A DNA stretch of 63,988 bases, filler included, from Ionaspis alba (taxonomy: Eukaryota): the NCBI GenBank assembly GCA_964255285.1. It is 5 parts of 5 records of this genome, joined end to end, with 100 filler letters (N's around TTAATTAATTAA, not from the genome) between each part and the next. Parts side by side here need not be neighbours in the genome. Positions count along the whole stretch, not along the records: positions 1 to 12,934 come from CAXUUL010000483.1; 4 more parts are not named here. One strand, given 5' to 3'. The notes beneath the pieces are model-generated. The model ran no database searches. It was not told the origin of the DNA and was given only the letters and a program-made list of their open reading frames with translations. The position numbers and the translations under genes were made by a program. Position 1 is the stretch's first letter; the number at the start of each line of letters is the position of its first letter. Below, piece by piece: positions 1 through 52,091 of the stretch.

Positions 1-874
1 GTACGGTTACATCTCTCATGTCCCTCACCGAAGTCTTTGTTCCTAGTTGATCCTATCGATATGTTCGGGTATGTTTCCAGGCAAGTGATCGATCAGCCTC
101 ACACAAGTTGCCAGGTACCTGCATATCTGATACCTCGAATCCTGCGGGGCTGCGTGTTTATCTGGGGTACAGGAGATGAATGGTCCTGACCATTTCATCA
201 TATGCCAGGGTTGGTTACAGTCGCAATGTCTCCTGACTGGCTACGTTTCTATTTATTTACACGAAGTCTCCTGTTACACTAGCGAGTGCGACATTGCACA
301 CTCCTTCTCCATGTTTCGAGTCTGCAAGGAGCCTCATGGGCTTCTTTCCAACAGAGCGGGCTTCGTTCTTGACCACTTTCATCACTAATCCCTGTTGTGT
401 CTGCGAATGACATTAGATTCTTACTCTATCAGGAAAACAGAAACGAAACATGCTTCTAGTCGATGTTCTGGAAACCATCTTCCTGATATTCCTTGTTGCT
501 CTGCTCAACCATGTCATGGTATCACTGGAATGTCGAGAAAAAGCTCTGTTCCTTCATTCAACGTTGGATGACTTCGCCTCATGCAACCACTGATCGTGTG
601 CACCAATATGCAGCCTGATTATCTCCTGGGTAGGTTCCTTTTTTGGTTGTCGTCCGGTTCACTAGACTTCCTACGAACGGATCGTTGAGGTATGATCTAC
701 ACCTCCACACACAGCTTGCCAAGGCACGTCTTGGCAGTTCAAAGGACCATAAATATGTGCTCTACTCCCCCGGGTTTTTAGCATCTCATCCTCTGCATCC
801 AAAAGTTTTTTAATAGCTAGCAAACAACCAGTGTCGAATTTTCGCCTCAGTTTGAACCTTTTAACCCCAAAATC

Positions 875-1801
875 ATGCAGTACTTCACCACATTTATTGC
901 CTTTTCCATGGCAGCAACTGTCATGGCAGCTGTTGCCTCCCCGATCGAGGAGCGCGCGATTGGGACTGCTTGCAATACTCCGGTATGCTCTGTCTCTCCC
1001 CTTTCCCATCAACCTTCCTAAATATATTCCCGTAGGATGGAGCGGGAACATGCCAGTATACCTCAAGCTGCACCAGTCAAGGTTTCAACCTCGCAGGCTA
1101 TTGCCCAGGTGCAAGCAACATCCAATGCTGTGTGAAGAAGACCTGCTCCGTTTCTGCAGGCTCGGGCATTTGTATGAACACGGGAGACTCCTGCGGTGGA
1201 GGCGGTTTCCATGCAGGCGCTTGTCCGGGCGATAGCTCCATTCAGGTGCGCAATACACTACCTCTAACCTCCCAACTATGTCTTAATTATCGAACAGTGC
1301 TGCGTCAAGAGCGGCTCAACCGGAGGTGGAAGCGGAAGCGGAAGCGGAGGCTCTGCTATCGTCTCCGCCGCCAAGAAAGAGGAAGGCCTCCCTTATGTAT
1401 GGGGAGGAGGAGGCTGTCACGGGCCATCGAGTGGTGGTTTCGATTGTTCGGGCCTCACTCAATACGCAGTCTGCCAAGCCAAGGGAAAGACGATTCCCCG
1501 AACAGCACAGACACAGTATCACAGCAGCATGGGCAAGCACCTCCCGCGCTCTCAGGCTCAGGCTGGTGACATGGTAAGTCCGAGTCTTTCGTGGTATTGA
1601 CGTTGGCAATGACTGACACACAAACAGATCTTCTGGGCCACAAATGGAGATTGTGCCAATCGCGTTGCCCATGTCGGCATCTTCATCAGGGCTGGTTGGA
1701 TGGTCAACGCTGCGCACACAGGCACTCCGGTAAGGGAGCAATCCATCTGGACATCATCTGGCGGGGAGTCGATCTGTCCGGACGCCGTTAGATTCTGGTG
1801 A
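875..1801 (+). CDS. Secreted NlpC/P60 (peptidase C40) cell-wall endopeptidase with two N-terminal Cys-rich (beta-defensin-like) repeats, 255 aa
   Basis: Manually spliced exons 875-982, 1036-1245, 1298-1573 and 1628-1801, all phase-0 GT..AG introns. Features in order: signal peptide MQYFTTFIAFSMAATVMAAVASP; two C..C..C..CPG.S.IQCC repeats; GGGSGSGSGG linker; then AIVSAAKKEEGLPYVWGGGG..GGFDCSGLTQYA..IPRTAQTQY..AGDMIFW..AHVGIFI..MVNAAH. These are the canonical NlpC/P60 motifs with a Cys-His-His triad. Confidence 0.92.
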
Positions 1802-1980
1802 AGATCTGTACTATTATTGGACTCGNNNNNNNNNNNNNNNNNNNNNNNNNNNNNNNNNNNNNNNNNNNNNNNNNNNNNNNNNNNNNNNNNNNNNNNNNNN
1901 NNNNNNNNNNNNNNNNNNNNNNNNNGATCTGTCCGGACGCCGTTAGATTCTGGTGAAGATCTGTACTATTATTGGACTCG
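1771..1980. other. Assembly gap (100 N) with an exact 55-bp duplicated flank
   Basis: 1771-1825 is identical to 1926-1980 on either side of the N run, consistent with an unresolved k-mer overlap. Confidence 0.9.
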
Positions 1981-2577
1981 GCAGTTTTGTGGCATTTCAG
2001 CTCTTGGGTCATCAAACTCCCACTGGCCACTCATTCTTTCCTCATTCTATCATTATCATTTACCCTTTCAATTCTTCTGCTTTGTCCTTCGTCTTATGTA
2101 CGCAGAGATTGAACAACGAGCGATACCAATAAAGTTGAGCAGATTTTCTTTTATACTGAAGTTGCTCTCGTTTCTGACAGAACGTTACCATTGATTACTA
2201 GTTATGATCAATCAATTCACCGCTGTGAGCAAGATGAGAATGAACGAATGATTGCTTGTCCAGTTGCCTAATCTATATCGAACAACTTTGGATTGTAACG
2301 TCATGGTTCATGGGCCCATAATAATAAATCAATCCTCAAGTTTTCTACTGTGTGTTCATAGATTTGGTACAACAGTAAGTATGCAAACATGATTAGTGCC
2401 GTGGTATCAGTGTAGACCGATGTCATCCTCCATTGAATGATAGTGATGCCGTTCACCGACAAGCCGGCAGGGCGAGAAATCATTTCGTGGTCACTCGGAA
2501 TCGTTCCCTTGCTTCGCCAAAAAACTATGATATAACCCCACGCCAGCGATAACTCCATGTCATTGTATGTCATCGTC

Positions 2578-3582
2578 CTATACCTGATCATGGATTTCTT
2601 CCGTAGCAGTCTGTTTGTAGCCAGAGCCATCTGTGTACGGCGGCCTGGAGTGCATGAGCTAAGGCTGACCTAACTCCGAGAAAGAGAACGATACCGTACC
2701 TACCGGGCGAGATTCTTTGCCGCAACGATCCCGGCACTCCCCACGGCAAAAGCTCCCAGTAGTGTCCTCCAGCTGCCGCTCTGTCCGGCAGCTAAAGCTA
2801 CGAGATCATAAACCAAACACCCACCAAAGATCCAATCGCTGGCCGCACTTGCCAAGCCGAACCCGACACCGGTAAGGACACGGACGGCCATGGTGGCCGG
2901 GTAGTCTTTGAAGAATGCCACAGACCCGTTGTGGAGAAGATCCAAGACCCCGATACCAGCAAAGGTCTTCGAAACAATATGGGTCAAGACGGAGGAAGTC
3001 GATGAGGTGTTCATAGGTTGGATCTTGGCGGCGATATAGTAGAGCTGGGTTAACGTATTGATGGTGACGAACACATTGGCTGTTTTGAGCTGGGATGAGT
3101 TCCAGAAGATCATCCAGGCTAGAGATTTTTGTTAATAAATATGAAGGACAAAAAAGGTGGAGAGACTGACTAGCTATGCACAGATTTCCGACAGCGTAAT
3201 AGGGGACGAAGTCCACTATCTTGTCGAGCTCAGCACGCTCGCCTGGGTTCTTGGGGCTGAGTTTCCACAAGCGGTAGAGCCATGCGAGCTGGAAGAGCTG
3301 CTGAGGAAAGAAAAAGCCGGCAATGAAGAAGGGCTGTAGACGCATTAGCCTAGGTATAGACTAAATCGTGACCAAAACAAACCTGAGGACTGAAGAATGA
3401 CAGATTCGCATCGTGCACATCTTTCATATTCGGACTGCTGAACATGCCATACTGCTGAGCAGCGAAGTCAATCAGGAAGGATGTTGGTGCCTATAGTGGT
3501 GGTGTCAAAACATCCCAGTCTACCTATCACACGGATTGGGAAGACTTACCAGCCATTTGGCCGTGGATACTGAGACGCCCAT
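2578..3582 (-). CDS. Conserved-looking fungal multi-pass membrane protein of unknown function
   Basis: Spliced model: MGVSVSTAKWL|APTSFLIDFAAQQYGMFSSPNMKDVHDANLSFFSPQ|PFFIAGFFFPQQLFQLAWLY..|WMIFWN..VAAKNLAR|PPYTDGSGYKQTATEEIHDQV*. Introns are canonical and there are several hydrophobic helices. The last exon is inferred from a GTAGGT..CCAG intron. Confidence 0.75.
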
Positions 3583-4113
3583 TGCGAAGTCCTAGAGCTT
3601 TGCAAGATACTGACGTTTCATGAAGAAGATGCAAGAGTAGTTGCGTATGGAGAAAACATGTTAAATGACTACATCACGATGCGCAAGATACTACCGTTGT
3701 TGCATGTTCGAATTGATGTCGTCACTAACTCGGCAGCCGCAACCCTAAAGCGCCGAGCCAGGGCAGTTCACTAATCCTTGCCAGGTGTCACGACTTGGAG
3801 GCTCCGGAGCTCGATCCACATATTCCGGGATGCGCAAATCAACGAATGGCTCGAGGACTTCATGGCGTGGGATTCCCACATGTTGCATGACACGACAAAT
3901 TCCAAAAGTATTTCCACGGATGACCATGCTATCTCGTAGTCAATTGCTAACCCTATCTAACTTGCTCGGCGCAGAGTTGGCGTCAAAAGCTAGTAGTTTT
4001 GAATTCTTTCTTGAACTTGCTCCACTGACATCAATACCTTGATACCTCGAGCACATGGCGTGCATTAGAATTTGTGGTTTGTTGTTGAACTGAATACCCA
4101 CCACTACCCTATC

Positions 4114-4758
4114 TCACTGCTTACGACTATCGCAATATCTTTCAATTGTCCAAGCCATTTCTTCGGCGATACAAAGGTCCTCGAGCCCGATACGACAGAT
4201 GTAGACATCGGCATTCACCGCTCGATTGTCTCCTCCCTGCAGTTCTAGATTGACCGTCACTTGTGTCCGGTCGTACCGCCATTCATACTCGTCTAGCTTT
4301 CTCTGTTGCTGTGGACTGAGACCGAAAAGTAACATGCCACAGACTAAGTCTCTCTCATTATCAGAAGACAAAAGCGCCGGATATGGCTTAGACTTGATCC
4401 CGAGTCTCTGATGTTGGGAAAGAGTGGCCAGAGTCATATTCGTGGCGTAAGCTATGGCGTCCACTTCTTCCATAGTCTCGACTATTATTGCAGGCAGCAT
4501 GAGAGGACCATAGAAGAAGGCAGGGCGCACTGAGGACTGGACGAACCAAGCGACCTCTTCACCCGTGAAACGGTTTGCAAGAGCGAGTAGATATAGACTT
4601 ATCTGAGCTATATTGGACTGCATGATGGCACAAAGGGGGGAAGTGATTTGAAAGACTACTTTTTTGCTCCATCGAGAGGACAGACGGGCAAACGGGTGAA
4701 TGGGCATGTGGGCAAGTGTGTTCTTTATAAGAGCAGTGAAATCTGATCTATGGCTCAT
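4114..4758 (-). CDS. Gamma-glutamylcyclotransferase / AIG2-like protein
   Basis: Single ORF with FFYGPLMLP (cf. FFYG[ST]LM), YPALL, LDEYE..YDRTQVTV and ADVYI motifs of the GGCT/AIG2 fold. The true start may be 4707 or 4623. Confidence 0.7.
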   Translation of the reverse strand: MSHRSDFTALIKNTLAHMPIHPFARLSSRWSKKVVFQITSPLCAIMQSNIAQISLYLLALANRFTGEEVAWFVQSSVRPAFFYGPLMLPAIIVETMEEVDAIAYATNMTLATLSQHQRLGIKSKPYPALLSSDNERDLVCGMLLFGLSPQQQRKLDEYEWRYDRTQVTVNLELQGGDNRAVNADVYICRIGLEDLCIAEEMAWTIERYCDSRKQ

Positions 4759-5435
4759 ACACTGTGAATCTGGTCATACCACTGAGAACTTCACCTTAAA
4801 CGAGGTGTTAGGCGAGGGGTATCGCAGAGCAAGGAAAGCACAGCTTGTAATGCAGTTGTAACAAAGAGCAATGGCCGTTCTCCTTTGTCATTTGGCAGAG
4901 TAGAACATTGCTCCAACACATCGATGAAAGATGCTTTAGCCCCTACTAAAAAGGCGTAACCAAATGTACCTGATGGAGGCAAGCTGATCGAAGTGGCAGA
5001 CGGCTGATCTTATGAACGACTACTCTAGAGTCAGACCTGTAGCGGTACAGAGAGATGGAAACGCCAGGCTGTCCTGTCTCGGCCAGAACATTGGACTTTG
5101 TGACATTTCAAATCAGGACCGGCCAGCTTCCATGCACTTCTCTCGCCGCAGGGCTGAACAGGGTTCCGCGCTAAGGAAGTCTCGCTTAGTCGTCATCCAT
5201 CTTCGACAGCATGTAGCCTGAAGAGCTCTCAATCTCTACAATTCTGTCATTCTTCTACCTCTCAACTTCTCATCCCCCACAGAGTCATCAAACTCCTTCT
5301 ACCTTTGTCAGAAGAATACTGGAAAATCTCAGCTAGTCTCCATCACATAGGTCCATACGACTTCATTCTTGTTGATATCCATCACACTCGTTGCATCCAA
5401 CCCTTACCTCTCCGAAAGTCCCCATCAACAACACC

Positions 5436-8194
<2,759 letters not shown>

Positions 8195-8813
8195 AGATTT
8201 GGTTCAACGTTCAATTTTGACCTGTCATGGAACGTACTTAGATTGTTGTGTCTCGTACATTCGATGTGGCCTCGACTCGAGGTAAAGTTGCATAATGGGA
8301 AGTATGATGCTTGTGAAGAGGCGAAGTGCAAGTGTTTTTTGCATGGCTATCTCGGCTGCCACTTCTATGTACTTTACATAGCGCTTAAAGAATAGACTCC
8401 TTTCCCATGCTTTGTGGTTCAGTACTTTCTTTGGTGCCTTGGACTAAACTCTCAAACGCCAGCGCGGTAGAGCTTTCTATGCAGCCACCTCCATGCAAAC
8501 CGTCGACTCCAAAAAATGGACTCTGAACCATGTGACACCCGAAATAAGACTCCTCCGAGCGCCTGAGCTTTGTTATTAGATATCTCGTCGTTTCGTGACC
8601 TGCTCAGATGTACTAGTGTTAGGAATCTGTGACAGGTTGTCCGTCCGTCAACCTTTCAAGTCCTTACGAGCGTGAGCAAAGGTTTTCCAAATCCACCCAC
8701 AGACACACAGCCTCATAGCCCAACTTCGCCATAGGTGTAGCCTTCGATCTGCCCTGCCACAGGAATTCTTCATGTTGTCAGATAGTCGAGAGACGTCCGA
8801 ACTTTTCCCAATC

Positions 8814-9290
8814 TCACATTCTCCGCTGTCGCTCCTCTTCATCCTCCCCAATATCTACCACTTGCTCCAGCACACCCCTCACAATCTTTACTCCCTCTTC
8901 AACTACTTTAGCCGGGACCGACAAATCCATGAGCCCACCTCTGCTTTCTCTTCCCCGAGCTTTCCCGTTGACTTCCTTCTTCCCGTTAATCCCATTTATC
9001 TCAGCTTTCTCCTTTGTCATGAACGCTCCACCAGCGTTGCCGCCTTTCGTCTCCTCCATGACAACCTGCATGACTTCACCAAAGGTGACGCATTCCCCGT
9101 TCCTGAGCAGTTCTAGCACCCGAGCGCGAATCTGTTCCAGCCAGCCACTGGCTTGACATTCATGAAGGAGAGAGGCGTGAAGAGCAGGAATAGCGTTGTG
9201 CGAAAGGAGAGCGGAGTTGATTTGGGTACGGAGAGCTGGGTTTAATCTTGGTTGAGGGGGAATTGTAATACGAGACGTCGCGGTTGCCAT
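8814..9290 (-). CDS. SUS1: Sus1/EnY2 transcription and mRNA-export factor (SAGA/TREX-2 subunit)
   Basis: 158-aa ORF with LRTQINSALL..LLHECQASGWLEQIRARVLELLR and LSVPAKVVEEGVKIVRGVLE, matching the EnY2 helical pattern. Confidence 0.75.
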   Translation of the reverse strand: MATATSRITIPPQPRLNPALRTQINSALLSHNAIPALHASLLHECQASGWLEQIRARVLELLRNGECVTFGEVMQVVMEETKGGNAGGAFMTKEKAEINGINGKKEVNGKARGRESRGGLMDLSVPAKVVEEGVKIVRGVLEQVVDIGEDEEERQRRM

Positions 9291-9925
9291 GGTATGACGA
9301 TGCAGGAGATTGAGGTCGATCTGATGCCAGTGGTGGTAGTGTTGCTCGCTTTAAGTGATTTGTGCGAATGTATTCCAGAATGTATGTCGACGACGAGGAC
9401 AAGGACGACCGATGTGTCAGAGTATTAGGGTCGTGTTTGGGCAATAGAACGACAGTGGGGTTATTGAATTGAGGCTGGCATGTGAATGGTGTTTTTAGAA
9501 CAGAGGCAGCTCTATTTGATAAATTCTCAAAGATTAAACTACTGAGGTTCAATAGGAGCAGTTTAGCCATCAAACAATATGTAATGTTCGCTATTGATGC
9601 TACCTGATCAACGAAAGGCCTTGCGGAACTGAACGATGTATTTTTTGACTCGGCGTCTATAGGAGCTGGACGCTTAAACAACTCTATACAAGCTTCGTGG
9701 ACGTCTGTTGGCAGGATCATCCGACTGGTACCATGTAAACTGCTCAGTCGCAAGGAATAGTCATATGGTATTCTGATGTCAATCTCCTCGATTTAAAAAG
9801 ATAGTATACCATATCAATGACATGGTTCCTGTTAGCCAGGTCCCTTGAACTAATACAAGAGCGTGAGGAATGATTGCAAGCTTCGTCATCCAGGGTCTTG
9901 GATCTTTCACTCATCATTCTCTCTC

Positions 9926-10868
9926 TTAAGCCGTTTCCCTCCACGCCTCCCTGATGCCAAAAAGTCCGGCAACCAAACCCAGCGCCGCAATGCTTGCCTC
10001 CCCTACATAACCTCCCTCAACACTGTAGTGAACCGTCAACGGCATCCACGCCGCATTTACATAGGCATCACGCCACCAAACAACCTCCTCTTTAGCAGCC
10101 ACGACCTTGTTCTCCTTCTCCTCGCCGCCGCTAATCTTGCCCTGCCTTCTCCTCAACATCCTCACTCTTGCCAATCGCCCAAATTCCAGTACCACGTGCG
10201 CCATCCAGAAGCGCGCGCTCCAGATGTACCATCTATTGACTTTGGTTTCCCCAAAGGCAAAGATTCCCTTGGAAGCGAGATACGCGCCGTTCTCAAGGTA
10301 CTGGTAGAACACATTCGCCATGATCTGCATCCAAGCAATCCCCTTCAGCCACACATCACCAGGCGGTGTTCGCCATGTCGCAGCAGCCCAGGCCCATATC
10401 TTCAGTAGGCCACCAAGTCGAAGGAAGACCCGGAAGTCATCGATAAGATCGGCGAGCGCTTTAGAGGACTGGGCCGCACGAACGATGCGGGATGAGGGCG
10501 ACGGTGAGATGGTGGCTACGAGAGTTTCGCCGGGTAGAAGCGTAGTTGGAGCTGTTCTTGAGAGGGTACTCGCAAGGAGGGTAGCAGCAGCCGAGAGGCG
10601 TGCCGATGTTATGCGATTCAAGGTGGAGTGGAGGAGATGGAACGTGTAGGTCAGGGTTAGAAGGGTGGTGTCGAGGTTGGCTGATGTGGAGAGAAGCCTG
10701 CATATTGGAATTGGCTGTCAGTCGGTTCCTTGAATCGATGAGAAGACGAGCATGGTATTGAGACCTGTTGATGTGAGATATGTAGGAGTCGGCATGTGAT
10801 ACGTATTGGGGCAGCGTCCGGGCGACTCTCTGAGAGTACGATGGCCGCTGCTCATGAGAGGGTGCCAT
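9926..10868 (-). CDS. Peroxin 11 (PEX11) family protein
   Basis: Exon 1 10868-10765, intron, exon 2 10697-9926. Motifs LADLIDDFRVFLRLGGLL, NVFYQYLENGAYLASKG, WSARFWMAHV, NAAWMPLTVHYS and a C-terminal hydrophobic segment are typical of fungal Pex11C-type proteins. Confidence 0.85.
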
Positions 10869-12934
10869 GATCAATGGTCTACAAGTATATAGAAGATCAA
10901 TGCCAACGAAGAAGCAATAGGTGAGTGGTACTCTTCTATAAACTCAATATTGCTTATATGTGATCCGACTGGCTGTTGACCTGTGGGGTTGGACGCTCAA
11001 GCCGAGGTCTACCGGCGCTTCCTCACCATGTGTCCGAATTGCCCTGCTGTGTTTGTTCTATCATGAATTCGACTTGCGTCTACAGACTATGACAAATTGT
11101 GACTAAATTTTCGACCTTTACAGTAAAAGTGCTGTTGGCACGAATGTTCACTCTTCCTAAATAGCCGAACGGCATCCATGAACAAGGACAAGCCCCGTGT
11201 GGAGAGAGGACGAGTTCATCTCCACTATATCTATAGGGGAAGTGAAATGAAAGCGGAAGGCAACCACCAAGACGATGATATAAGTCTTGAATATAGCCAT
11301 GGCACACTTCACCCAAGACGGGCCAGGTGTGAGCGCTGACCGGCTATTGGAAACGACATACAAGAGTTTTGACAGCACGACATAATAACCCCACTAAGGC
11401 GAGAGCCAAACGCAAGCACATTCCATGCGAGTCGCTAATGCCTGATAAGGTGGCAATGACATAGGAGAGAGCGGAAGCCAAACGCGATTCGACAAGGATT
11501 GGGAATTCTAGCACTTAGCTCGCAGATGGTGAGTCTGATGCTTACAACCGAGTCTCCAGATACTTGTTGAGGTCCTACCTTAGTATTTCGTCCACAGAAT
11601 TCTAATCACAGTCTGGCGTAGTGACAGCAAAAGCTCCGACGAGTTTTTAAGAACAAATACAAATCCATAGCCCCAGTGGCCAGTCGAGTTCTGCAGTCCG
11701 ACACAGAAGATCCTTGATAGCATAAGTAGTCCCATTGATATGCGGTATAGCGGCACGAACAATGTTTGTGATAAACGCACCAGCCAGGCTCAGGAAACCA
11801 TCTATGGCTTCCAGTATGGGAAAGGGTCGACTCACAAGTACCCAAGTACATATGAGAAATGTCACGAAGATATGCCACCACTCCTACGAGGTCCAGATTG
11901 AACTCAAAATACATTGAGAGTCTCTGAGCTGGGGATTGATACCCAATAAATTACTACTCATTGACGCACCACAGATGCTCGGAAAGTTGGAGTTTTTCTC
12001 AAGCTCTTAAGGACGGCCCAAGGCAGCGATTCGAATATTTGCCGGAGAAGCTTCATCTTTATGCGGCAAGATGTCCGGTAATCCGGAGCTCATTTAGCAT
12101 CTGTTGTCTAGTTCATCCTGTAGGCACTCCAATCAGAAGAGGAAGAAGTGAAAGCGAATGGATTTGTGAAAGGGAAGTATTAAGTTTGAGCATTTTGCTA
12201 TTCAAGATTGCCGGAAGATTTGGTACAAGGAATAGAATTCGATTTAGCTAGCGCTCCAGTGACTCTCACAAAAAGAAGGATGTTTGAGGCTAAGGATGTG
12301 TGCAACGTACAAGAATTAGCACACTTGGACCGGAAATTGAGAAGCATCAAGGGTTATGCAAGCTTTTGTATCTTTTGCTTGTTTCGAGGTGACAGGTGCA
12401 GCGGCTCAGGGCGAGAAAATCCTTGGACATGCCTGTTAGGGTGCCATAGTCAAGATTCAGTGGGATTCGTGAAATTTGGTTCTCGTTAGGGGATTTATGT
12501 CCAATGCAAAGAGAAAGCGGCCAGCAAGGACTAGAATTGTCTAGCTCTAGAAAGGTCCCAACTGGTTTGTGGTAAGCTCAGTGTAACGTACAGTAAGTCA
12601 GAATAGCTGAACAATACAAGCCCCGCTGCAAACCTGGCCAACCTGGCAAATGCTGGAATCGAAGGCCAATACCATGTATGTACTCCTTGTCCCTACCCAC
12701 TCCAAGATGGATCCATGCTTGAGTCGGATCAAGAGAAAGTCGAGAACATTACCAGCCACATAATATCTCGTAGCTTCGTATCTAGTGTTGGCCACTTCTG
12801 TGTGCGCAAGTCGTAACGAGGTCATGCCACTGATTGATAGATGAGAAGCGGCTCACCAATGTGCTCGATTTCTGGTATTGTGCACTTCAGGTCGAACGCT
12901 TTGGAAAGGACGATCTTGAAGATCTGTATCGCAC

Positions 12935-13034
12935 NNNNNNNNNNNNNNNNNNNNNNNNNNNNNNNNNNNNNNNNNNNNTTAATTAATTAANNNNNNNNNN
13001 NNNNNNNNNNNNNNNNNNNNNNNNNNNNNNNNNN
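12935..13034. other. Artificial scaffold linker (44N-TTAATTAATTAA-44N)
   Basis: An identical 100-nt cassette occurs four times in the window; the 12-mer gives stop codons in all six frames. Confidence 0.95.
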
Positions 13035-19162: not shown

Positions 19163-20215
19163 AGCTTTTGAGAAATGAGTGAAATGGCTGGGTGTATGGA
19201 CGGAGGAAAAGGGGCGAAGCTTGATATACAAAAATATTTCATAAGAAGACAGCGGAAGAGACGAAAAGTGATTCCATTAGCGGAGAATTTCTACCCCGCA
19301 GGAAGATAACGAGTTTCCATATCGCTCCTGAAAGGGCAGGTCTGCTGAAAATGTCATCAGGGTGTTGATAGCCATCTTCATGTACCACTGGCTACTATGT
19401 GGAGTATAATTTGACCAGACTGTCGCCTTGAACATAGAGCAATCCAGTTGAGCTGGTTTTAATGCACGCGTAAGGTCGAGTTTCTTCCGTAATGCCGTCA
19501 CATGAGTGTCCCGCAATATACGTGTTCGAAATCTTTCAAGTACTAGTAGAGGTTTTTGAGTGATGAAGTTGTCAGGCCAAGGGTCTGGCTTTGCTAATGG
19601 CTGAATGGATCAACCGTGGCTCGAGTGAACAAGGGGATTGAGGGGCACAAAGTTCAGAACGAAGCCGATAATGCCAAGATATCTCAGCCCTATTGACAGC
19701 CCTGCCAGGATACGTACTCCAGCGCGGGACTGCCATGCAACTGAACAACGGAGATTGAATGTAGAGATCCTGCATCTCAGATCTGGGTAAGCTTACTGCT
19801 TTCTGGACCGGGATTCAAGATCTTGACTATCCACAGCATCAATTTTGTGACTCGACCTTTGCGATTGGGCTGAGCTGGACTACCTGGACCACTGGAAGCC
19901 TCGATCATGTCAGATCGATTGACCCTCTGCCCAACACCATCGACGTTGCGCCGATCATAAGTCTGAGAAGAGCAATCTCCAGAGTGAACAAAGGAGGATG
20001 CGCAAGCTTGCTAGCAGGGATCTGGAAGAACCATTTGTTGGCACCTGAGATCGGTACAACGGACCTCGAATGACTTTCATTGAAGGGCCAGCCTTGATTC
20101 CGAGCTGGAAGCTGAAGCATCACTACATTTGGTCTGTTATTGTCCCCGACAATCCTTAGCTTACGCGCCGTTATCGAAAAGGACACTACACGCAAGTCGG
20201 ACCACAAGATAATCC

Positions 20216-23200
20216 ATGGCGTACAATCAGAATGGGCAGGGCTTCTATGGTCAATACAATAGCTCTCAAGGGCCCTTGGAGCCACCCTATCAATATGGAA
20301 CCTACGTGCATAACCACCAATCGGACATGAGGAGGACATCGAGTTTTGATAACGGAGACGATAGAGCCCAATTTGCAGCCGACCATAGCGCAACATACCG
20401 CACGGGCAGTACCGCAAGCATACAAAATGAAGAATTATTCATGGGAGCTTCTGGCACAGTCATGAGGAACAATTCGAGCGGTTCCGCAATGAGCGGGGCC
20501 TACCAGCACCAGGGTTCTCTCCCACCAGGTCAGAGCCCACTCTCGAGTTATAATCCTCAAGAATATGCTCGATCATCAGCTCCATACACTCCGCAGAACT
20601 ATGGTAGTACAGGTACCAGTCCTAATCCTGGACATCTACCCTACGTCCCTGCCGCATACCAAACCACTAATGCGCCTCAACATGTGGGCTACGGCTACCC
20701 TGCCCAAGAGTCCTATCAGAGTCCACATCCACCTCCCTTACCCTACCAAGCGCCTTCACATCCTCCTCCCATCCCGCCCAGACCATACGAGCAACCCTAC
20801 GGTCGTAGGCTATCACATTCTTCGACAAGCCGATATTCAGAACCTTCCCATCGAAATTCACCACTTCCCCAATTGCCTGGCTCATCCCCTAGTGCTTCTG
20901 GATATACTCCCCCAGCTCCTCCTCCACCTCCTTTCTCGCCGATTCGCGATGGCTTTCCGTCCCACGGCCAAGCCGCATCACCAATGCGCCCATATATACA
21001 TAATTCATCCAATTCGCAGTCTCCAAATCCTCAGTATGATACTAGCAGACAACCTAACATGCATCAACTACCTTCTCTGCCAAACTATTCTGCCGCGGAC
21101 GAAAGCATTACTTACGCCCCTCCAGTTCGACAATCATCCTTCCCTCGGCCCTCCCCTGGAGCCTCCCTGCCATCTTCGCCAGCACCAGTACCTCCTCAGC
21201 ATTCGCCCCAGCGCACCAATACAACTGGCCGTCACCCAACTGCCCGACCACTTCCCGGTCCTCCGGCGCCTAGCGACAACAATCCAGATTATTTTGGTTC
21301 ACAGAACGGAAGTAGTCAGGAAGGAGACGATGGTTACATTTACGATGATATCATGAAAGAGGTCGAGGAGGCAATAATGGGGCGAACTCCAAGCACGACT
21401 GCAAGCAGAACGAGTCCACGAGTTGGAAGGATCACACACCAGCCTCAAATCAACGAAGAAGAAGAGCCTCGACCACTCTTCTCGGGAAGTTCTTATGCTA
21501 GTATCACGCCGGACTCAAGCAACAGCCACACCAATGGGATAGGTGGTAGCGGCTCAGGAATTGATGTCAATTATAGTGCTTACAGTGATGACAGTGATGC
21601 AGAGGCTGCTGCAGGTCTTGCAGCCATGCAAATGGCTGAAGAGCAGGAGGCTGCAGATGCTGCCCGCAGATTCAGTGGTAACACTGCAGTCCAAAGCCTG
21701 TACGGATCACAACGCAGCTCTAGGCCGGCAGAGCAATCAGCAGACTTGAGTAGCGACAGTGACGTACCAGTGGATATGAGTACTTATGGTGGAGGTTTTT
21801 CAGGAAATATCAACTACCACTATGGCAACGAGCTTACCAGTCCCTCTCACGCAGGTGATGCATTGGACAGGCAATATCAAGCTCCATCATCAAGCTCGCT
21901 TCGAAGATCGAACTTGTCCAACGAAGTGCTTCAGATGCCTCAGGCCGATTATTTCGCAGCAGACGATGATTTCATTCATCCTTTTCCATCATTTGGTGCA
22001 AGAGTTGATACAGGGGGTACGGGTGGTTTCTCGGAACCAGGTTCCCACCCACGGCGTTTGAGTTTCGAGGACGGGGATGAAGCAACGCTGGTAGATTACG
22101 ACATATCAGCCGCGCCGAGTCCTGCGAAGGATCCGATGGCATACACATCCTCATACCCGGCACGAAGTGCTAGTCGCCCACTTCCACAAGTACCCGGATT
22201 AAATACGGTTGACTACTATCGTTCAAGACGTCAGCTAGATCAGTCTGGAAAACTGGTCTATCCTATCGCTCCCGATGAATACGAACAAAGCTATACACCA
22301 TCTGGCACCCCAGTGCAGAAAGCGAACTCCATAGGAAGCCATAGTACTACTCCACTCGTCGTTCCTCCTGGCCGCTCAATCACGGATGCAGAACAGCGTC
22401 GGAGACAGCAGCAACTATCAGGAACTCGGAACAGTGCTTCCTACGACCCCAATTCTGGCCCCGATGCTATGCTAAACAGTAATGAAAAACTTGGAGACAT
22501 TGATCTTCCTTCAATTCCTGCGGGCAAGCGAAGAAAGTTTATTCCTTCCAAACTATCTACCAACGATTTCAAGAGTTGTACTGAGCCATGGGCACTTAGC
22601 TCGATCCTCGCTTGGATCAAAGAGATGACCGATGGCGAATCGGACTTGAAGGAGAATGCGGTGATTGATGGCATCGTGGCTCTCTTTACCCATAAAGTGC
22701 CTACTATGAACACTGCCGATGCGGAGGTCATCAGTGCGTGGGTTGTAAAATCTTTGTTCGAAGCAGGGGCACTCATCAAAGAAGAAGAGTGGGTCAAGTT
22801 GGGTACAAACCCAGTGTCTGGTGTTCTGTATCAGCTTACCGGCACTGGCTGCTATTCGTCAAGAGTCCACACCTCGACAATACCTGGCAGGTGCTATTCA
22901 CATCATTGCATGCGAACCTTGAAGAAGATCAATTTGCAGATCCAGACCTTACAACCACGGCGTAAGGCTGACGATTGGGTCACTTTCTACAAGCTCAAGA
23001 AAGAGGATATCGAAGGCCGCCCGAAGAAGGAGATTGAACGACAAAACGTTCTTCATGAAATCGTTACAGGAGAGGAGCTCTTCATAGATTCCTTGAACGT
23101 CTTACTCATACTGTACCGAGGAGGATTGGCGAAGTCGTCACATGCAATTATACCGCCGAAAAAGCTGGATGCATTCTTGACTGACGTTTTTGGAAATGTT

Positions 23201-25570
23201 GAGGCAGTCAAGACCGCCAACGAGAGTAATCTACTTGCTGGACTGAAATGGCGTCAACAGGAAGAAGGTCCTTGGATCAAAGGCTTCAGTGACATCTTTC
23301 GGGAGTGGATACGAAAAGCTCGTGAGCCTTATATTGCATATGCATCGAATCTACCCAATGCGACACTTCTCGTGCGAAGGGAAGCCGACCGGAATGCCAT
23401 GTTTCGACAATTCCTAGCACAAATGCAGGAGAATGAAAGTTCCCAGCGGCTTGACTGGTCCCATTATTTGAAGGCTCCTATTACCCGGCTCCAACGCTAT
23501 GGTTTGTTGTTGACCACAGTACTCAAGAACACTCCGGAGGATAGTCCAGAGAAAAGCAACCTCCTCAAAGCCATGGAGGAGATCAAGGCAGTCACCTTGG
23601 AGTGTGATGCTCGAGTGGCGGAGAACACGAAGCAAGCAGAACTTGCCGATCTTGCTCGCAGACTCAAACTCAGACCGGGTATGGAAAAGGTACAGCTCAA
23701 TCTAACCCATTTGGGGAGAGAGGTCATCTTCCAGGGCGATCTGCAAAGGAAAGGAAATAATAAAGTAAGCTGGCTCGAGACTCATGCGATACTCTTCGAT
23801 CACTACCTTGTGCTGGCCAAGTCCATCCAGCAAAGGGACGCTGCTGGCGGATTGAAACATGAAGTCTTCGACGTCTCGAAGCTGGTGAGTAGAATTTACT
23901 TGACAGACTCCACTTCCCTCCCTTCGCACTGCTGACTTCTTGAATAGCCAATACCTATGGACTTACTTGTCCTCGAAAGTACGAACGACGATCCTGTGGT
24001 CAAGTCTTCCGTGAAAGGTATTGCTTCAGTATCCACCGTTACAAGCCGAGCGCAAACTCCGCAAGAGATGCGCCTTGGAAGAACAGTATCAAGCCAGACC
24101 ACTGGTACTGGAGGTCCTGGAACACTCACGCATACTAGTACTAGCTCTTCGGCAGTCTCGACGGGCACCAATGGAAGCAACAGAACCCTCACGACAACCA
24201 CAATCCTAGATTCCCCTAACGAGAAGATAATGTATCCCTTCCGTGTAAAACATCTCGGCAAGACAGATGTCTACGTCTTGTATGCGCCTACGGCCCAAAA
24301 TCGACAGGACTGGTGTGATAAGATCATCGAAGCCAAGACACGGCATGCCGCATCATTGTTCGCCCAAAACGCCGAACCTTTTAGACTACGAGTTGTGGCA
24401 GACACTGCCTTTTCATACGACTCCATGTCTGGAGGCCAGAAGAGCATAGTCATTCGGGGCACTCCTCTCGACCGCGCCATCAGAGAGGTGGAGAAAAGAT
24501 TCGATGGACTTGGCGAAGCACCACCTACCGTCTGCAGAGCTACGGTCAATTGTGCAACGGCGTTCCAACAACCACAACTACAAGGGCAGCCACCCGGAAA
24601 GCACATGATCGCCGTGGGCACCGACTTTGGTGTATTTGTCTCCGAGTATGACAACCCTCGCGGCTGGGATAAAGTCATTTCATCTACCCGTGTGACTCAG
24701 CTTGCAGTGCTTGAGGAGTTTTCGTTGTTCCTTGTTATCTCAGACCGATCCCTCATAGCACATCACCTTGACGTCGTATGTCCAGCAGGGAAAACTACTA
24801 CTCGTACTTCCGAGTCGTCTGGTCGCCGAGCACCTCAAAAACTCTCAGGCAATCGAGATGTGGGTTTCTTCGCACATCGGCGTATGAAAGACAGGACTCT
24901 CGTCTTCTATAAGAAACGCGAAGGTATCTCTTCAACCTTTAAAGTACTAGAGCCTGTCTACCAGAAATCATCCACTTCATCCAGAAATCGCCTTGGGATG
25001 AGGAAAGGCACTACGGAGTTCTTTAGAGATTTCGATGACTTCTACATCCCGAGCGAAACCTACACTATCAATCTCTTCCAGACAAGCTTGGCTATTGCAA
25101 CAGCGAGAGGATTCGAGGTCTTGACATTGGATAAAAAGGTACCGTTCAGCATTCCGGATCTCAGAGCCCCTGAAGTCGCCTCCATTGCGGCTCGCATCCA
25201 GGGTCAGAAACCTTTGGGCATGTTCCGGCTCTCAGACAACGAATTCCTGCTCGTCTTCGAGGAAGTCGGCATCTACGTTGACAAGCATGGTGAGGTTTCT
25301 CGGGCTGTCGTCCTGGAATTTGTAGGGAAAGCTCGACAGGCTGTTTTATATGGAAGTATGTACCTAATACTGGTGGATACGAACGCCGGATTCGTGGAGG
25401 TCAGAAATGCTGTGAATGGCAGATTGCGGCAGGTCGTCAGCGGAAAGGATGTGCGGTTACTGGACGATGGGGCCAACGGGGGGACGGTCAAGATCTGCAT
25501 GCAGCATCCAGAGATGGAGAGAAGTCAGCTTGTGCTGGAGATGATTGTGAATGAGGGCTTGAAAGAATAG
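20216..25570 (+). CDS. Rho guanine-nucleotide exchange factor with DH-PH-CNH architecture (Rom2/Tus1/Rgf3 family)
   Basis: Pro/Ser-rich N-terminus, DH domain (EIERQNVLHEIVTGEE..YLKAPITRLQRYGLLL), PH domain (ILFDHYLVLAK..PIPMDLL) and CNH domain (VTQLAVLEEFSLFLVISD..). One 63-nt intron at 23885-23947. Confidence 0.93.
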
Positions 25571-25963: not shown

Positions 25964-26063
25964 NNNNNNNNNNNNNNNNNNNNNNNNNNNNNNNNNNNNN
26001 NNNNNNNTTAATTAATTAANNNNNNNNNNNNNNNNNNNNNNNNNNNNNNNNNNNNNNNNNNNN
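25964..26063. other. Artificial scaffold linker (44N-TTAATTAATTAA-44N)
   Basis: Same cassette as at 12935. Confidence 0.95.
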
Positions 26064-38980: not shown

Positions 38981-39080
38981 NNNNNNNNNNNNNNNNNNNN
39001 NNNNNNNNNNNNNNNNNNNNNNNNTTAATTAATTAANNNNNNNNNNNNNNNNNNNNNNNNNNNNNNNNNNNNNNNNNNNN
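38981..39080. other. Artificial scaffold linker (44N-TTAATTAATTAA-44N)
   Basis: Same cassette as at 12935. Confidence 0.95.
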
Positions 39081-39754: not shown

Positions 39755-42700
39755 TCAAAGCTCGTCCTTGACATCCCTCTCCTTCTCCTCCTCCACACTC
39801 ACCCTTTCCTCCTCCCTCTCCCTCTCCCTCACACTCCTCAAAAACCCCTCAATCTCCTCATCATAAACCGTCCACTCCGGCACCTGTCTCCTGGCCCTCT
39901 CCAGCTTCGGCTCTTTCGTCAACGGATTATTACACAAATCGATCGTCCTCGCTTTCGCCAAACTCTCATCACTACACCACGTCTCGCACCATAGCCACTC
40001 TTGCGGTAAGCTGTGAATCGGTAGGGACATTTGCATGTGGTTCGGGAGATCTTGGTCTAGATTGCTCAAGGAGTTGGGATCGGCACTGAGCTGATGGTAT
40101 TGCTGCCGTAGTCGATCGCCTGCAGCCATTTGCCGGAATTTTTTGAGGTCCACAACGTAGAGCGCGGAGATGTGGTAAGGTGAGCCACGGAGGAAGGACT
40201 TCCAGTAACCCTGTTTCCAGAAACGAAAACCCTCCATCTCAGTGCGAGAATCGCACATCGGTGTGAACGCATACGGAGCGCCCTGCAAATCATGCGTGAC
40301 GAGATCGTGCATGTCAGTACGAACGATCTGGTCCGCATCGACGAAGATGACTTTATCAAGAGAGAGCGGAAAAAGAACATCAAGGAAAAGGATCTTATAA
40401 CCCCAGATCTCACGTTGTTTTTCCTTCTGCGAGCGCAGCCAGTGCGGCCATTTATAGGTGACCATTTCGAAGCCGAAGCCGTAGTGGGCGGCGAGATGGG
40501 GGAGGGAGGCTTTGAAGGAAGGGGAGAGGAATTGCTCGATGAACCAGAATTTGACTGTGTGCTTGGTGTGCCGCGTTACGCTTAGCATCATGATGTTGAG
40601 CATGCGTTCGTAGAGGTGGCCTGAGGCGACGGAGAAGATGTTGATGTCGGCGTGTTCGGGTTTGGGTGCCAGGCCGACGTTTGATAGGATGGAGGATGCG
40701 AATCTGGTCGCTTTGGAGACGTAGTCCATTGCTGCGCCGGTGAGACCGCCTTCTTCTAGGACGTCCTCCATCTCCTGACCGGCCTTGCGAGAAAGTCGAG
40801 GGAAGAGCGTCAGGCCTTGAAAACTCATAAGAGCAACGTGTGTACTCTCGTCGCCCTGCTGTGGAGCATAGCCCTTGGAGCCAGCGCTCTCGATCTCGAA
40901 AATTTGCTGACTGCGGCCAGATTGCAATCGAATGTTCCAATATCCTGGATTAGCTTTGAATTGGAAATATCCGAGGTTTGCCATAATCAGAGTGTCTGCA
41001 GAGTGGGGATTCTTTTCAGTTCCTAGGAGAAGCTGCACCCCACGAGGCGGTTGTCCACTGCTCGTATCACGAGAATGACCTTCAATAAGGATGTGCTCCA
41101 GCTCGTAAACAGCATCGATATCAGTGCCATCCTTGAGAGCACTCAGCTTAATGTTATCGAGATCTTGAACGCATTCTTTGGGAGCGACTAGCCAGGCAGG
41201 TGGAACATCAAGACCCAGGTTGAGCAAAGCTTCTTTAGGCAGACCTTCGAATCTAGCCTTCAGTTTCCGCAAGCTACCGTTCTCATGAAAGGATGGCTTT
41301 GCATCTAGCACGTATCTATAGAATCGTTTTACCGGAATCTCCTGCATCCTCTCTCGGGGGTTAAGGAAGAGTTTCATGTGAACCCCACTTAATTCGGAGA
41401 TCACCTTGAGAATTTGCACCCATCTCTGAGTGACCTCGCTGGTAGGATCTATTGCTGCGACTATCTGGATAGATGCGGTTTCGGAATCGCCTGTCTCGAT
41501 GGCAGTATGGCTCGAATTCCACTTCTGGAAGTTGTTCATCCGCAGAGATGATGCAGAGTCGAAGATCCCCTCAGGTACATCGGAGATTGTAGACAAAGCA
41601 ATCAGCGACGAAGCGCAGGCTGCTGCCAGAGGCGTGTCGAGCTTATCCTCAAGTCCCAGAGCCGCAAGGGCTGTGTTTGCAGGAGTAATCCGCTTCAGCC
41701 GTTCGTACTCCAGCAAATGTTGAAAGTCTTCTGAAACGAAACTGGTTCCTTCAGGTATAGGGCCAACGAAACGTCCATTCAGCACAACGCCTCGTTGCCC
41801 AGGCTGCAAGCCAATGGATGAAGCAAAAGCCTGCATGCCAAGCCAGAACGCTTCTGCCATCTGATCCGGCTCTTTGGGATTGATTCGGCTAGCAGACGAA
41901 TCTGTTCCTGTCAACGCAGCTGTTACTATTTCGGGGCTAAGCTCGTTGCTGTTGAGGAAAGCCTCGAACATCCTCGCCGACCTATAATTGATTGTAGTCT
42001 CATGGGATGGATTATGCACGATAACAATTTCCGCCTCGCTTTGCTTCTTTCGAAATTCCATTGCTTCAAGGACCATCTGAAGACCCTCCTCTGAATCCAG
42101 GTCGGCCACAATAATCAGGTGGGACCAAAACTGCTTCATTGCATCACTGCTAGTGGTAATTCGAGGGAGACCATTGTACATTGGTCTTTGTTCTGATACA
42201 ATCTTGCCGATGTCAAGTATCTTGACGGTGCTTTCGTCTTCGGGAATGACCAACGCATTCCGGTGTGTGACTGCTGCTTGGAGGAATTCGCCGGCGAGCC
42301 AAGTATCATCAGTGATAACCTCTTCAAAGACTTGCTTCTGGAGTGCCCGCAAATCAAGCTCAATTCTTGAGCTCATTGATTGCATCCAACCATCATTACG
42401 AGGCATGACTGCACCGTTGACGAAGATCAATGGTGAATTGCCGTCTATACCAAGGCGGCCCAAGTACTTGTGGGTGCTCTTCACTCGGCTTTCAAGCTCA
42501 TCTGCCTCTAGCACGGCGGAGAAGTCTAGAGCGGCCATATCTTTTCTCACGTCCCGTCCCTTGATCGCAGCCTGGAAATCTAGCTCGTTGATGTTCCGGA
42601 TCTTTCTGTCTTTGATAGACTGTGCAGTATTAGCTCGAGCTTTGCACGGTGCAGCATTCTAAGACCAGAAAACTCACAGTCTCGAGATATGCAATGACAG

Positions 42701-51991: not shown

Positions 51992-52091
51992 NNNNNNNNN
52001 NNNNNNNNNNNNNNNNNNNNNNNNNNNNNNNNNNNTTAATTAATTAANNNNNNNNNNNNNNNNNNNNNNNNNNNNNNNNNNNNNNNNNNNN
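51992..52091. other. Artificial scaffold linker (44N-TTAATTAATTAA-44N)
   Basis: Same cassette as at 12935. Confidence 0.95.

Follow-up and report, generated by a model that had tools for sequence, protein, structure and literature searches.

Some of the closest described counterparts of the protein examined here come from Coprinopsis cinerea, in which Kombrink et al. (ISME J 2019, PMC6461984) describe ten 'defensin-like peptides' (DLP1-10) of ~100 amino acids (aa) with 12 conserved cysteines. The same paper describes the lysozymes LYS1-5, GH24 enzymes with an N-terminal 12-cysteine domain joined by a linker. According to its available parts, several DLPs and lysozymes are induced by bacteria and present in the secretome, the lysozymes lysed B. 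subtilis, and the authors, whose model of the fold has a helix and two strands, regarded the fusion as confined to a few fungi. Here we describe a gene of Ionaspis alba whose predicted product joins a similar cysteine-rich region to a different catalytic domain. It lies at 875-1801 on the plus strand of the window, by which we mean the whole analysed stretch of 63,988 nucleotides (nt), filler included, joined from five parts of five records of assembly GCA_964255285.1; positions 1-12,934 come from CAXUUL010000483.1. A preliminary description had reported a secreted-type fungal NlpC/P60 gene at this place, and our analysis confirms that observation. We estimate at about 65% the probability that its product is a secreted modular hydrolase combining a peptidoglycan-cutting C40 domain with envelope-targeting modules.

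The C. cinerea and I. alba proteins are alike in their signal peptide, 12-cysteine N-terminal region (here aa 33-108), linker and C-terminal peptidoglycan hydrolase, and in that the module also occurs on GH24 domains and by itself. They differ in the enzyme, which is an NlpC/P60 endopeptidase here and a GH24 muramidase in C. cinerea, and in the modelled fold, all-beta here and alpha-beta there. Primers used for quantitative reverse-transcription PCR of DLP1 encode two peptides in keeping with the module motifs C2-x5-C3 and G-x-C4-P; no Coprinopsis name occurs among the 45 matches of a search with a GH24 module protein. If the two domains are the same, the new elements here are the pairing with NlpC/P60, the wide range of partners and taxa, and the all-beta model of beta-defensin type. 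Our search of the open-access literature found no paper on a fusion of a cysteine module with NlpC/P60, on the breadth of the module or on a beta-defensin-type fold in fungi.

The catalytic half has precedents of its own. Ascomycete NlpC/P60 proteins (A. fumigatus, A. clavatus, Metarhizium and Pochonia) share the catalytic domain, cysteines found only in fungi and an affinity to actinomycetes. The window catalytic domain is 80% identical over 132 residues to that of Cladobotryum P0017, a catalytic-only protein, and the whole window protein is 50% identical over 257 alignment columns to A. fumigatus P0012. The published ascomycete proteins are single-domain or have an SH3-type N-terminus, as far as the available text of PMC4600878 goes; the window protein has two six-cysteine modules instead. 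RipA/RipB and the clostridial or Tn916-type autolysins (4q4g, 3pbi, 7cfl, 4hpe and 9ubf) have the same fold and the same catalytic Cys and His, and give the best sequence and structure matches. They carry Glu or His where the window protein has Asn, do not share its four added cysteines or its eukaryotic gene structure, and have other accessory domains.

Two further eukaryotic groups are comparable. The NlpC/P60 enzymes of Trichomonas vaginalis (6biq, 6bim; PMC6299479) and the dust-mite protein LytFM (PMC4600878, PMC5586350) are likewise secreted C40 proteins of bacterial ancestry and, in the available parts of these sources, are thought or shown to act on bacterial walls. They represent independent acquisitions with other accessory parts, LytFM being single-domain. 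The Trichomonas enzymes are distant in sequence (E 6e-8 to 2e-6) and their PDB chains, at 265-278 residues, are longer than the domain; we take the extra part to be bacterial SH3 domains. Phage endolysins resemble the window protein in design, with a lytic domain, a flexible linker and small repeated non-catalytic modules that are shuffled among catalytic domains. In the window protein, by contrast, the module is N-terminal, disulfide-rich and eukaryotic, shows no sequence relation to LysM, SH3b, PG_binding or CW_7 in ten module proteins compared with Pfam at E <= 10, and has binding as its presumed role.

A probable four-exon gene for a secreted-type protein

Joining the four exons in Table 1 gives a coding sequence (CDS) of 768 nt that runs uninterrupted through 255 codons to its stop. 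The ATG at 875 is the earliest in-frame Met downstream of an in-frame stop, and all three introns are GT..AG and phase 0, with filamentous-ascomycete-like ends and branch-like motifs. The preliminary description had proposed four exons that splice into a 255-aa protein consisting of a signal peptide, two Cys-rich modules, a Gly/Ser linker and a complete NlpC/P60 domain. The in-phase CDS agrees with this, comparison with relatives backs the junctions, and the spliced protein contains every one of these parts, the first as a signal-peptide-like N-terminus. The motifs quoted at the time (PYVWGGG, FDCSGL, IPRTAQTQ, AHVGI and NAAH) are all found. The remark that open reading frame (ORF) calls miss the catalytic domain also holds, since 0 of the 19 ATG/GTG/TTG ORFs of at least 40 aa over 700-1825 lie in the catalytic frame.

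Several comparisons bear on the splice junctions. Eleven full-length database homologues align from residue 1 and without gaps at the three junctions. Relatives of the window protein are also encoded at 17 metagenome loci. At L001 and L003-L010, tblastn segments place residues 1-158 in a single frame and residues 154/158-253 together in a second one; because these frames span them, the three intron positions of the window are bridged by unbroken coding DNA in these relatives. The loci (about 3001-3829) are without the window's three introns and have one short interruption near residue 156, beside the catalytic Cys. L002, a contig of 1,156 nt, is collinear across all three junctions, with one frame change near base 550. 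An independent DNA contig of 4,954 nt covers 700-1820, introns included, with 2 differing letters. In our view the four-exon model is very probably correct. Judging from these alignments, lineages of the NlpC/P60 family evidently vary in their intron positions, which points to intron gain after transfer.

We also considered whether this is a working fungal gene at all, as opposed to bacterial contamination or the decaying remains of a transferred gene. Directly behind the stop comes a 100-N gap whose two flanks are duplicates, and the gene is known from DNA alone. This account is hardly credible, however, given three spliceosomal-type introns in an otherwise intact frame, the retention of the catalytic residues and all 12 module cysteines, the ordinary eukaryotic genes of the window (among them a Cdc48-type AAA ATPase, PEX11, a RhoGEF, an importin and UGGT) and the agreement with the independent contig. 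The 55-nt duplication flanking the gap includes the last 31 nt of the CDS plus the stop and leaves the reading frame unaffected. The interval 1771-1980 looks like a scaffolding artefact in which overlapping contig ends were joined and not merged.

A hydrophobic, signal-like segment spans about aa 4-20 (Kyte-Doolittle 10-residue means of 1.4-2.05 over residues 4-16) and is likely cleaved near aa 19-22. Family members in A. fumigatus carry signal peptides and were detected in the lavage fluid of infected mice, according to the available text of PMC7549978. The hydrophobic N-terminus and these relatives suggest that the 255-aa protein is secreted. The linker is predicted to be flexible, with a predicted local distance difference test score (pLDDT) < 50 at the equivalent residues 112-118 of a homologue model. 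Between the signal-like segment and module 1 stands a P-[LI]-x-E-R stretch (window 941-958, aa 23-28), which is kept in homologues P0001, P0058, P0059, P0004, P0005 and P0023. The catalytic-only relatives P0017 and P0025 have a K-R site where the window protein has this stretch, and the position may be a propeptide processing site.

Table 1. Features of the NlpC/P60 gene and its flanks, in window coordinates.
Feature	Position	Strand	Details
TATA-like ATAAATA, possible core promoter	749..755	+	~120 nt upstream of the ATG; inferred by sequence reading alone
Exon 1	875..982	+	aa 1-36: start codon, signal-like segment, P-I-E-E-R stretch, C33 as first Cys of module 1
Cys module 1	971..1131	+	aa 33-68, across intron 1; C-x8-C-x5-C-x10-C-x7-CC; net charge -1
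Intron 1	983..1035	+	53 nt, GTATGC...CCGTAG, phase 0
Exon 2	1036..1245	+	aa 37-106: remainder of module 1 and most of module 2
Cys module 2	1144..1303	+	aa 73-108, across intron 2; C-x8-C-x6-C-x9-C-x7-CC; net charge -2
Intron 2	1246..1297	+	52 nt, GTGCGC...GAACAG, CTAAC-type branch motif, phase 0
Exon 3	1298..1573	+	aa 107-198: terminal CC of module 2, Gly/Ser linker, first half of NlpC/P60 with Cys156
Gly/Ser-rich linker	1310..1354	+	aa 111-125; from the sequence
Cys156 codon, FDCSG motif	1445..1447	+	C in 85/86 fungal and 31/31 bacterial rows; aligns with the catalytic Cys region of solved NlpC/P60 enzymes
Intron 3	1574..1627	+	54 nt, GTAAGT...AAACAG, CTGAC branch-like motif, phase 0
Exon 4	1628..1801	+	aa 199-255, stop at 1799-1801: second half of NlpC/P60 with His213 and Asn225
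His213 codon	1670..1672	+	H in 86/86 fungal and 31/31 bacterial rows
Asn225 codon, third triad member	1706..1708	+	12 positions past His213; aligned with His of 7cfl and Glu of RipB 3pbi
100-N gap	1826..1925	.	exact 55-nt duplication on its flanks, 1771-1825 = 1926-1980

The catalytic domain

The Pfam family NLPC_P60 (PF00877) matches exon 3 alone at E 2.6e-12 and 47.1 bits (cut-off 23), over profile positions 1-56. Exon 4 alone matches positions 58-91 at E 0.027 and 14.9 bits, under the cut-off by itself. Because the two halves abut there, the profile runs across intron 3. The family named in the preliminary description is thus recovered above the curated threshold, with exons 3 and 4 collinear.

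Structural comparison points the same way. Exon 3 matched 29 distinct PDB sequences at E <= 0.01. P0001, the nearest full-length relative among the matches listed, is 81% identical to the window protein across all 255 residues and matches 35 distinct solved NlpC/P60 sequences at E <= 0.001 (best 7cfl, 2.8e-18). Its AlphaFold model has a mean pLDDT of 80.4, with the catalytic blocks at 87-97. In Foldseek this model gave 62 PDB matches at E <= 0.001, among them RipA 4q4g (E 9e-9, root-mean-square deviation 2.0, 138 columns); other fold matches include RipB, Cg1735, clostridial autolysins, SagA, LytE, MepS and the Trichomonas enzymes. The predicted fold is papain-like alpha+beta, as modelled for the 81%-identical P0001 in place of the window protein itself.

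The catalytic triad differs from the Cys-His-His arrangement first put forward, in which the His of the NAAH motif was the third member: alignment gives Cys156-His213-Asn225. We rejected the Cys-His-His triad since His228 (NAAH) is poorly conserved, being H in 52/86 fungal rows and in 0 of the 29 bacterial rows listed (of 31), and since Asn225 occupies the third-residue position. At that position 84/86 fungal rows have N, and the 31 bacterial rows have H (24), E (4) and one each of N, D and Q. Asn is an accepted third-residue variant in NlpC/P60 domains according to the available text of PMC4600878.

Four further cysteines mark the fungal rows, Cys146 and Cys165 (78/86 each), Cys207 (85/86) and Cys248 (86/86), all of them absent in the 31 bacterial rows. 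They probably form two stabilising disulfides suited to secretion. Fungal-specific cysteines and a variable third residue were previously reported for ascomycetes by Tang et al. 2015 (PMC4600878, in its available parts).

A widespread cysteine module

The N-terminal half of the mature protein consists of two related modules, identical at 16/36 positions. In 12 homologues all 12 cysteines are invariant or nearly so. Also kept are a G-x-C preceding the second Cys, an aromatic residue that follows the third and, at the fourth, C-P-G. Across 333 modules, G-x-C is present in 331 and C-P in 280, and the commonest spacings are 8-5-8-7 and 8-6-9-7. The window modules have an isoelectric point (pI) of about 4.1-4.2; the 333 modules have a median net charge of 0, with 59% at or below 0.

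Searching with exon 2 (70 aa) in phmmer returned 215 representative proteins at E <= 0.001, 66 of them at E <= 1e-10; the number of strict-pattern modules in a protein ranges from 0 to 21. Several short matches near the top of the ranking look like prokaryote-style ORF calls on eukaryotic DNA and end where window exon 2 ends. For exons 1 and 2, Pfam gives no family at E <= 1. Ten module-rich proteins compared with Pfam at E <= 10 gave chance-level rows only, with no LysM, SH3b, PG_binding, CW_7, defensin, big-defensin or clip match. In a PDB profile search with the homologue alignment (E <= 10), 36/36 matches fell on the NlpC/P60 part (profile >= 110) and 0 on the modules. An ESM Atlas search with exon 2 gave no usable match, and a six-frame motif scan of the window gave one further match, within module 1 of the same gene.

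We surveyed the partners of the module in the best 148 of the 215 matches, using Pfam at E <= 1e-5 and counting two-family proteins under both families. A Pfam family was found in 33 of the 148, and 115 had none. Peptidoglycan hydrolases account for 20 of the 33 annotated proteins and belong to at least seven families: GH24 (Phage_lysozyme; 6 proteins), VanY (5, of which 3 also have GH24), NLPC_P60 (5, one also with CHAP), Phage_lysozyme2 (4), and Peptidase_M15_3, GH25 and GH108 (1 each). The remaining 13 are proteins with ribonuclease, prokaryotic-type phospholipase A2, cutinase, papain C1, BSP peptidase, DUF7223/DUF7029 or a weak stanniocalcin match, and one fibronectin protein, which is probably unrelated. 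GH24, GH25, VanY and NlpC/P60 partners recur in the search with the GH24 module protein. Stand-alone proteins with a signal peptide and one to three modules also exist (P0221, P0226, P0265, P0216, P0264 and P0192).

Named carriers of the module include Neocallimastix californiae (21 modules), the chytrid Kappamyces, Jimgerdemannia (Mucoromycota), Ascobolus and Meristemomyces. Further carriers are the lichen fungi Xylographa and Lambiella, the dictyostelid Acytostelium subglobosum and the bdelloid rotifer Adineta steineri. On these matches the module is a widespread, promiscuous domain without a Pfam model, found from chytrids to Dikarya and also in a dictyostelid and a rotifer. The Acytostelium protein (P0123) combines 9 modules with a BSP-type peptidase. 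The rotifer protein (P0241) combines CBM1, 2 modules and a VanY domain and may be another lateral acquisition. DUF7223 accompanies the module in 5/148 proteins (P0141, P0150, P0171, P0182 and P0197), three of which also have DUF7029 and one a ribonuclease domain; the DUF7223/DUF7029 proteins may be further secreted antibacterial enzymes.

The accessory module, more than the enzyme, is the noteworthy part of this protein: it has neither a Pfam model nor a sequence-related solved structure, and it sits on peptidoglycan hydrolases of at least seven kinds. Were it described as a family, annotators could identify a large share of the fungal antibacterial secretome that is now labelled 'hypothetical', given the 115 of 148 best matches that are without a Pfam family. 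Its natural combinations with enzymes are templates for engineered lysins.

Proposed function

To our knowledge, peptidoglycan exists in bacteria only. After removal of the signal peptide, the mature protein would consist of two 36-residue six-Cys modules, the Gly/Ser linker and the C-terminal NlpC/P60 domain (MEROPS C40). By homology with RipA/RipB and the clostridial and Tn916-type autolysins, the C40 domain would cut the gamma-D-glutamyl-diamino-acid bond of stem peptides. The modules would hold the enzyme at the bacterial envelope or bring it to its substrate, in the manner of the wall-binding domains of endolysins. Both the enzyme family and the partner domains of the module suggest lysis or control of bacteria, and we surmise that the ecological use would be antagonism of, or feeding on, neighbouring bacteria.

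Several points weigh against this reading. The module is probably the 12-Cys domain of C. cinerea, a comparison made by description and by the two primer-encoded peptides and not by alignment, and lysis by LYS2 was unchanged when the module was removed, according to the available text of PMC6461984. Its partners include ribonuclease, phospholipase A2, cutinase, papain C1 and DUF7223/DUF7029 domains, which do not act on peptidoglycan, and the module may therefore serve a more general purpose. The LYS2 deletion and the partners that do not act on peptidoglycan are what speaks most strongly against simple wall binding. Beyond these, the 115 of 148 matches without a Pfam family are uninformative, poly-gamma-glutamate hydrolases and amidases with substrates other than peptidoglycan occur among NlpC/P60 domains as well, the signal peptide was judged by hydropathy alone, and transcription and splicing in I. 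alba are read from DNA and comparison.

The protein could act on another gamma-glutamyl or amide substrate, such as poly-gamma-glutamate, or on the wall of the fungus or its partner, with the modules anchoring it to the hypha through a fungal or algal polysaccharide. NlpC/P60 proteins include poly-gamma-glutamate hydrolases such as PgdS (PMC5880399, in its available parts), the module also occurs on cutinase, papain-type protease and CBM1-containing proteins, and the LYS2 result would fit. The closest solved relatives, however, are all peptidoglycan DL-endopeptidases or autolysins (RipA/RipB, Acd24020 and the Tn916-type enzymes), and peptidoglycan hydrolases predominate among the annotated module partners (20/33). 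We regard a target other than peptidoglycan as very unlikely.

Predicted fold of the module

We modelled P0153, which consists of a signal peptide and two modules, from an alignment of 32 sequences. Its modules were predicted at pLDDT 89-95 as all-beta, each with four strands and at most a helical turn of 3-4 residues. A Foldseek search of the module model against PDB returned nothing at E <= 0.001; it gave just two rows, at E 7-9, and neither reached Z >= 2 on re-examination. A Foldseek-independent search with VIA-align covered 48,161 PDB chains, and only five reached Z >= 2: helianthamide (4x0n; Z 3.3, 43 of 44 residues aligned), the C-domain of oyster big-defensin (6qbk; Z 2.9, 43 aligned), human beta-defensin 4 (5ki9; Z 2.6, 43 aligned), the clip domain of Drosophila Grass (2xxl; Z 2.5, 41 aligned) and the sea-anemone toxin ATX Ia (1atx; Z 2.1, 36 aligned), values that are low and of a size that can reflect a common arrangement. 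We take all five to belong to the beta-defensin-type fold group, and the cysteine spacing of the module, including the terminal CC, to be close to the beta-defensin consensus.

The module probably has a beta-defensin-type fold, on the strength of these weak structural matches to its model. It resembles such folds in its six cysteines, spaced C..C..C..C..CC, and in its all-beta model; it differs from them in that the window modules are not cationic, in the missing sequence-family match and in Z scores that are just 2.1-3.3. The alternative of a cysteine-stabilised alpha-beta (cis-) defensin fold does not suit the window modules. That fold is marked by a CxxxC on the helix and a CxC on the strand (PMC5234102, in its available parts); CxxxC/CxC are absent in the window modules and the model is all-beta. 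Fungal defensins have been assigned to the cis superfamily alone, according to the available text of PMC8877149.

One extension of these results is that the module is a beta-defensin-type (trans-defensin-like) domain outside animals, shuffled as a 'bacterial-envelope address tag' among secreted muramidases, amidases, carboxypeptidases, endopeptidases, RNases and phospholipases; we offer this tentatively and hold it doubtful. We regard homology to animal defensins as a minority possibility. If the module were homologous to the big-defensins and beta-defensins of animals, the trans-defensin fold would pre-date animals, and its first role would have been that of an accessory part of lytic enzymes and not that of a free peptide.

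The fold also invites a reading in which the modules themselves do harm. They could be defensin-like antimicrobials that act on membranes or lipid II, perhaps cut off at the linker, with the NlpC/P60 domain as a second weapon. Stand-alone module proteins and a linker predicted to be disordered would suit such a design, as would the exclusively beta-defensin-type character of the five chains at Z >= 2 and the bacterial induction and secretion of C. cinerea DLPs (PMC6461984, in its available parts). Yet the window modules are acidic and the charge of the wider set centres on zero, unlike cationic membrane-active defensins, and the fold match is weak. In addition, the DLPs could not be produced by the authors of the C. 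cinerea work, the available text of which demonstrates no antibacterial activity for them. We think it unlikely that the modules are antimicrobials in their own right, and prefer for them a role as targeting domains of a wall-cutting enzyme.

Relatives and origin of the enzyme

A search with the exon 3 translation returned 413 proteins at E <= 0.001 among 3,264 candidates, and the best 120 were listed. The first 87 of these 120 are fungal or eukaryote-like proteins with 54-86% identity. Named fungal sources among the matches listed are Aspergillus, Penicillium, Talaromyces, Metarhizium, Pochonia, Purpureocillium, Botrytis, Clarireedia, Ascodesmis and one member of the Auriculariales, along with many lichen-fungus bins. 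The best relatives point to a filamentous ascomycete as the source of the gene, probably a lichen-forming lecanoromycete. The remainder (P0088-P0120; 52-69% identity) are actinobacterial 'lytic transglycosylase/C40' proteins, or nameless records mostly like them, with affinities to Rhodococcus, Nocardia and Streptomyces-type proteins; one of them, P0091, grouped with a fungal protein in the tree.

That tree is a quick maximum-likelihood analysis of 117 catalytic domains over 135 columns, drawn from the best 120 matches with 4 partial rows dropped, and it came with long-branch warnings. An unstarred branch, with a moderate support of 83 in the Shimodaira-Hasegawa-like approximate likelihood ratio test (SH-aLRT), separates the window protein and 85 fungal or fungal-like rows from the rest. 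The nearest named bacteria are the streptomycete proteins P0088 and P0092. The ancient bacterial origin suggested in the preliminary description is plausible in view of the actinobacterial relatives and this tree. A single transfer is not proven by it, because the sample is the best 120 matches of one search; the data agree with a single old transfer from actinomycete-like bacteria without proving one. The three spliceosomal introns, the intron positions that differ among relatives and the cysteines confined to fungi all speak for a long stay in fungal genomes.

Fungal enzymes of this family were known before. Mite, ascomycete and actinomycete NlpC/P60 proteins share an ancestor according to the available text of PMC4600878, a statement repeated in PMC5586350, and the Aspergillus and Metarhizium genes are treated as published candidates for lateral gene transfer in the available parts of PMC6299479. 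The link between ascomycete NlpC/P60 proteins and actinomycetes is thus already published (PMC4600878, PMC6299479). By itself the enzyme is ordinary, one more bacterial-wall hydrolase of actinomycete-like descent in fungi.

The N-termini attached to this domain vary. Of the 117 rows, 36 have an SH3-like N-terminus (mostly Eurotiales), 19 a Cys-module N-terminus and 12 another N-terminus, and 18 are catalytic-only (mostly Hypocreales); the remaining 32, from P0088 onwards, are actinobacterial or nameless, P0091 grouping with the fungi. Cys-module forms occur in Leotiomycetes, Lecanoromycetes, Pezizomycetes and one Auriculariales basidiomycete, at several early-branching positions of the tree. 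Mapping the architecture on the tree requires 10 changes, and starred branches alone force at least 4. The preliminary description had picked out the two-module architecture as worth attention, which overstated its distinctness: the layout is not peculiar to this gene and is conserved across several fungal classes. A few database homologues are fused to unrelated domains, namely P0016 (1346 aa), with CorA and a carbamoyltransferase, and P0056 (795 aa), with an MFS transporter. P0035 (585 aa) is unusually long with NlpC/P60 as the sole family listed. All three most likely reflect gene models that were merged in draft or metagenome-assembled genomes of fungi.

Genomic context

The other genes recognised in the window lie at 4114-46664 and are ordinary eukaryotic ones. 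They encode a GGACT-domain protein, the Cdc48-type AAA ATPase (6052-8194), PEX11, a short-chain dehydrogenase, an isochorismatase-domain protein, a protein with RhoGEF and CNH domains (20213-25570), the importin, a CBS-domain protein, a PB1-domain protein, a carboxylesterase and UGGT (39755-43910). Because these are eukaryotic housekeeping genes, there is no evident defence or metabolite cluster. Bacterial contamination was excluded as the source of the gene on the grounds of its introns and these eukaryotic window genes.

Such surroundings leave room for nutrient scavenging, in which the enzyme would open up the peptidoglycan of dead bacteria, or shed muropeptides, as a source of carbon and nitrogen and the modules would just hold it on the debris. 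This shares the family and domain evidence on which we base an antibacterial enzyme, and housekeeping neighbours in place of a defence or secondary-metabolite cluster would suit it. The data at hand do not separate scavenging from antagonism; the related C. cinerea module lysozymes, however, are induced by live bacteria and lyse them (PMC6461984, in its available parts). Scavenging as the sole purpose seems improbable to us, and we favour a secreted hydrolase directed at neighbouring bacteria.

Paired 44-N blocks with 12 bases between them occur at 12935-13034, 25964-26063, 38981-39080 and 51992-52091. Their regular spacing of ~13.0 kb makes them look like a masking or data-handling artefact and not biology. 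Further 100-N gaps stand at 58330, 59647 and 61560.

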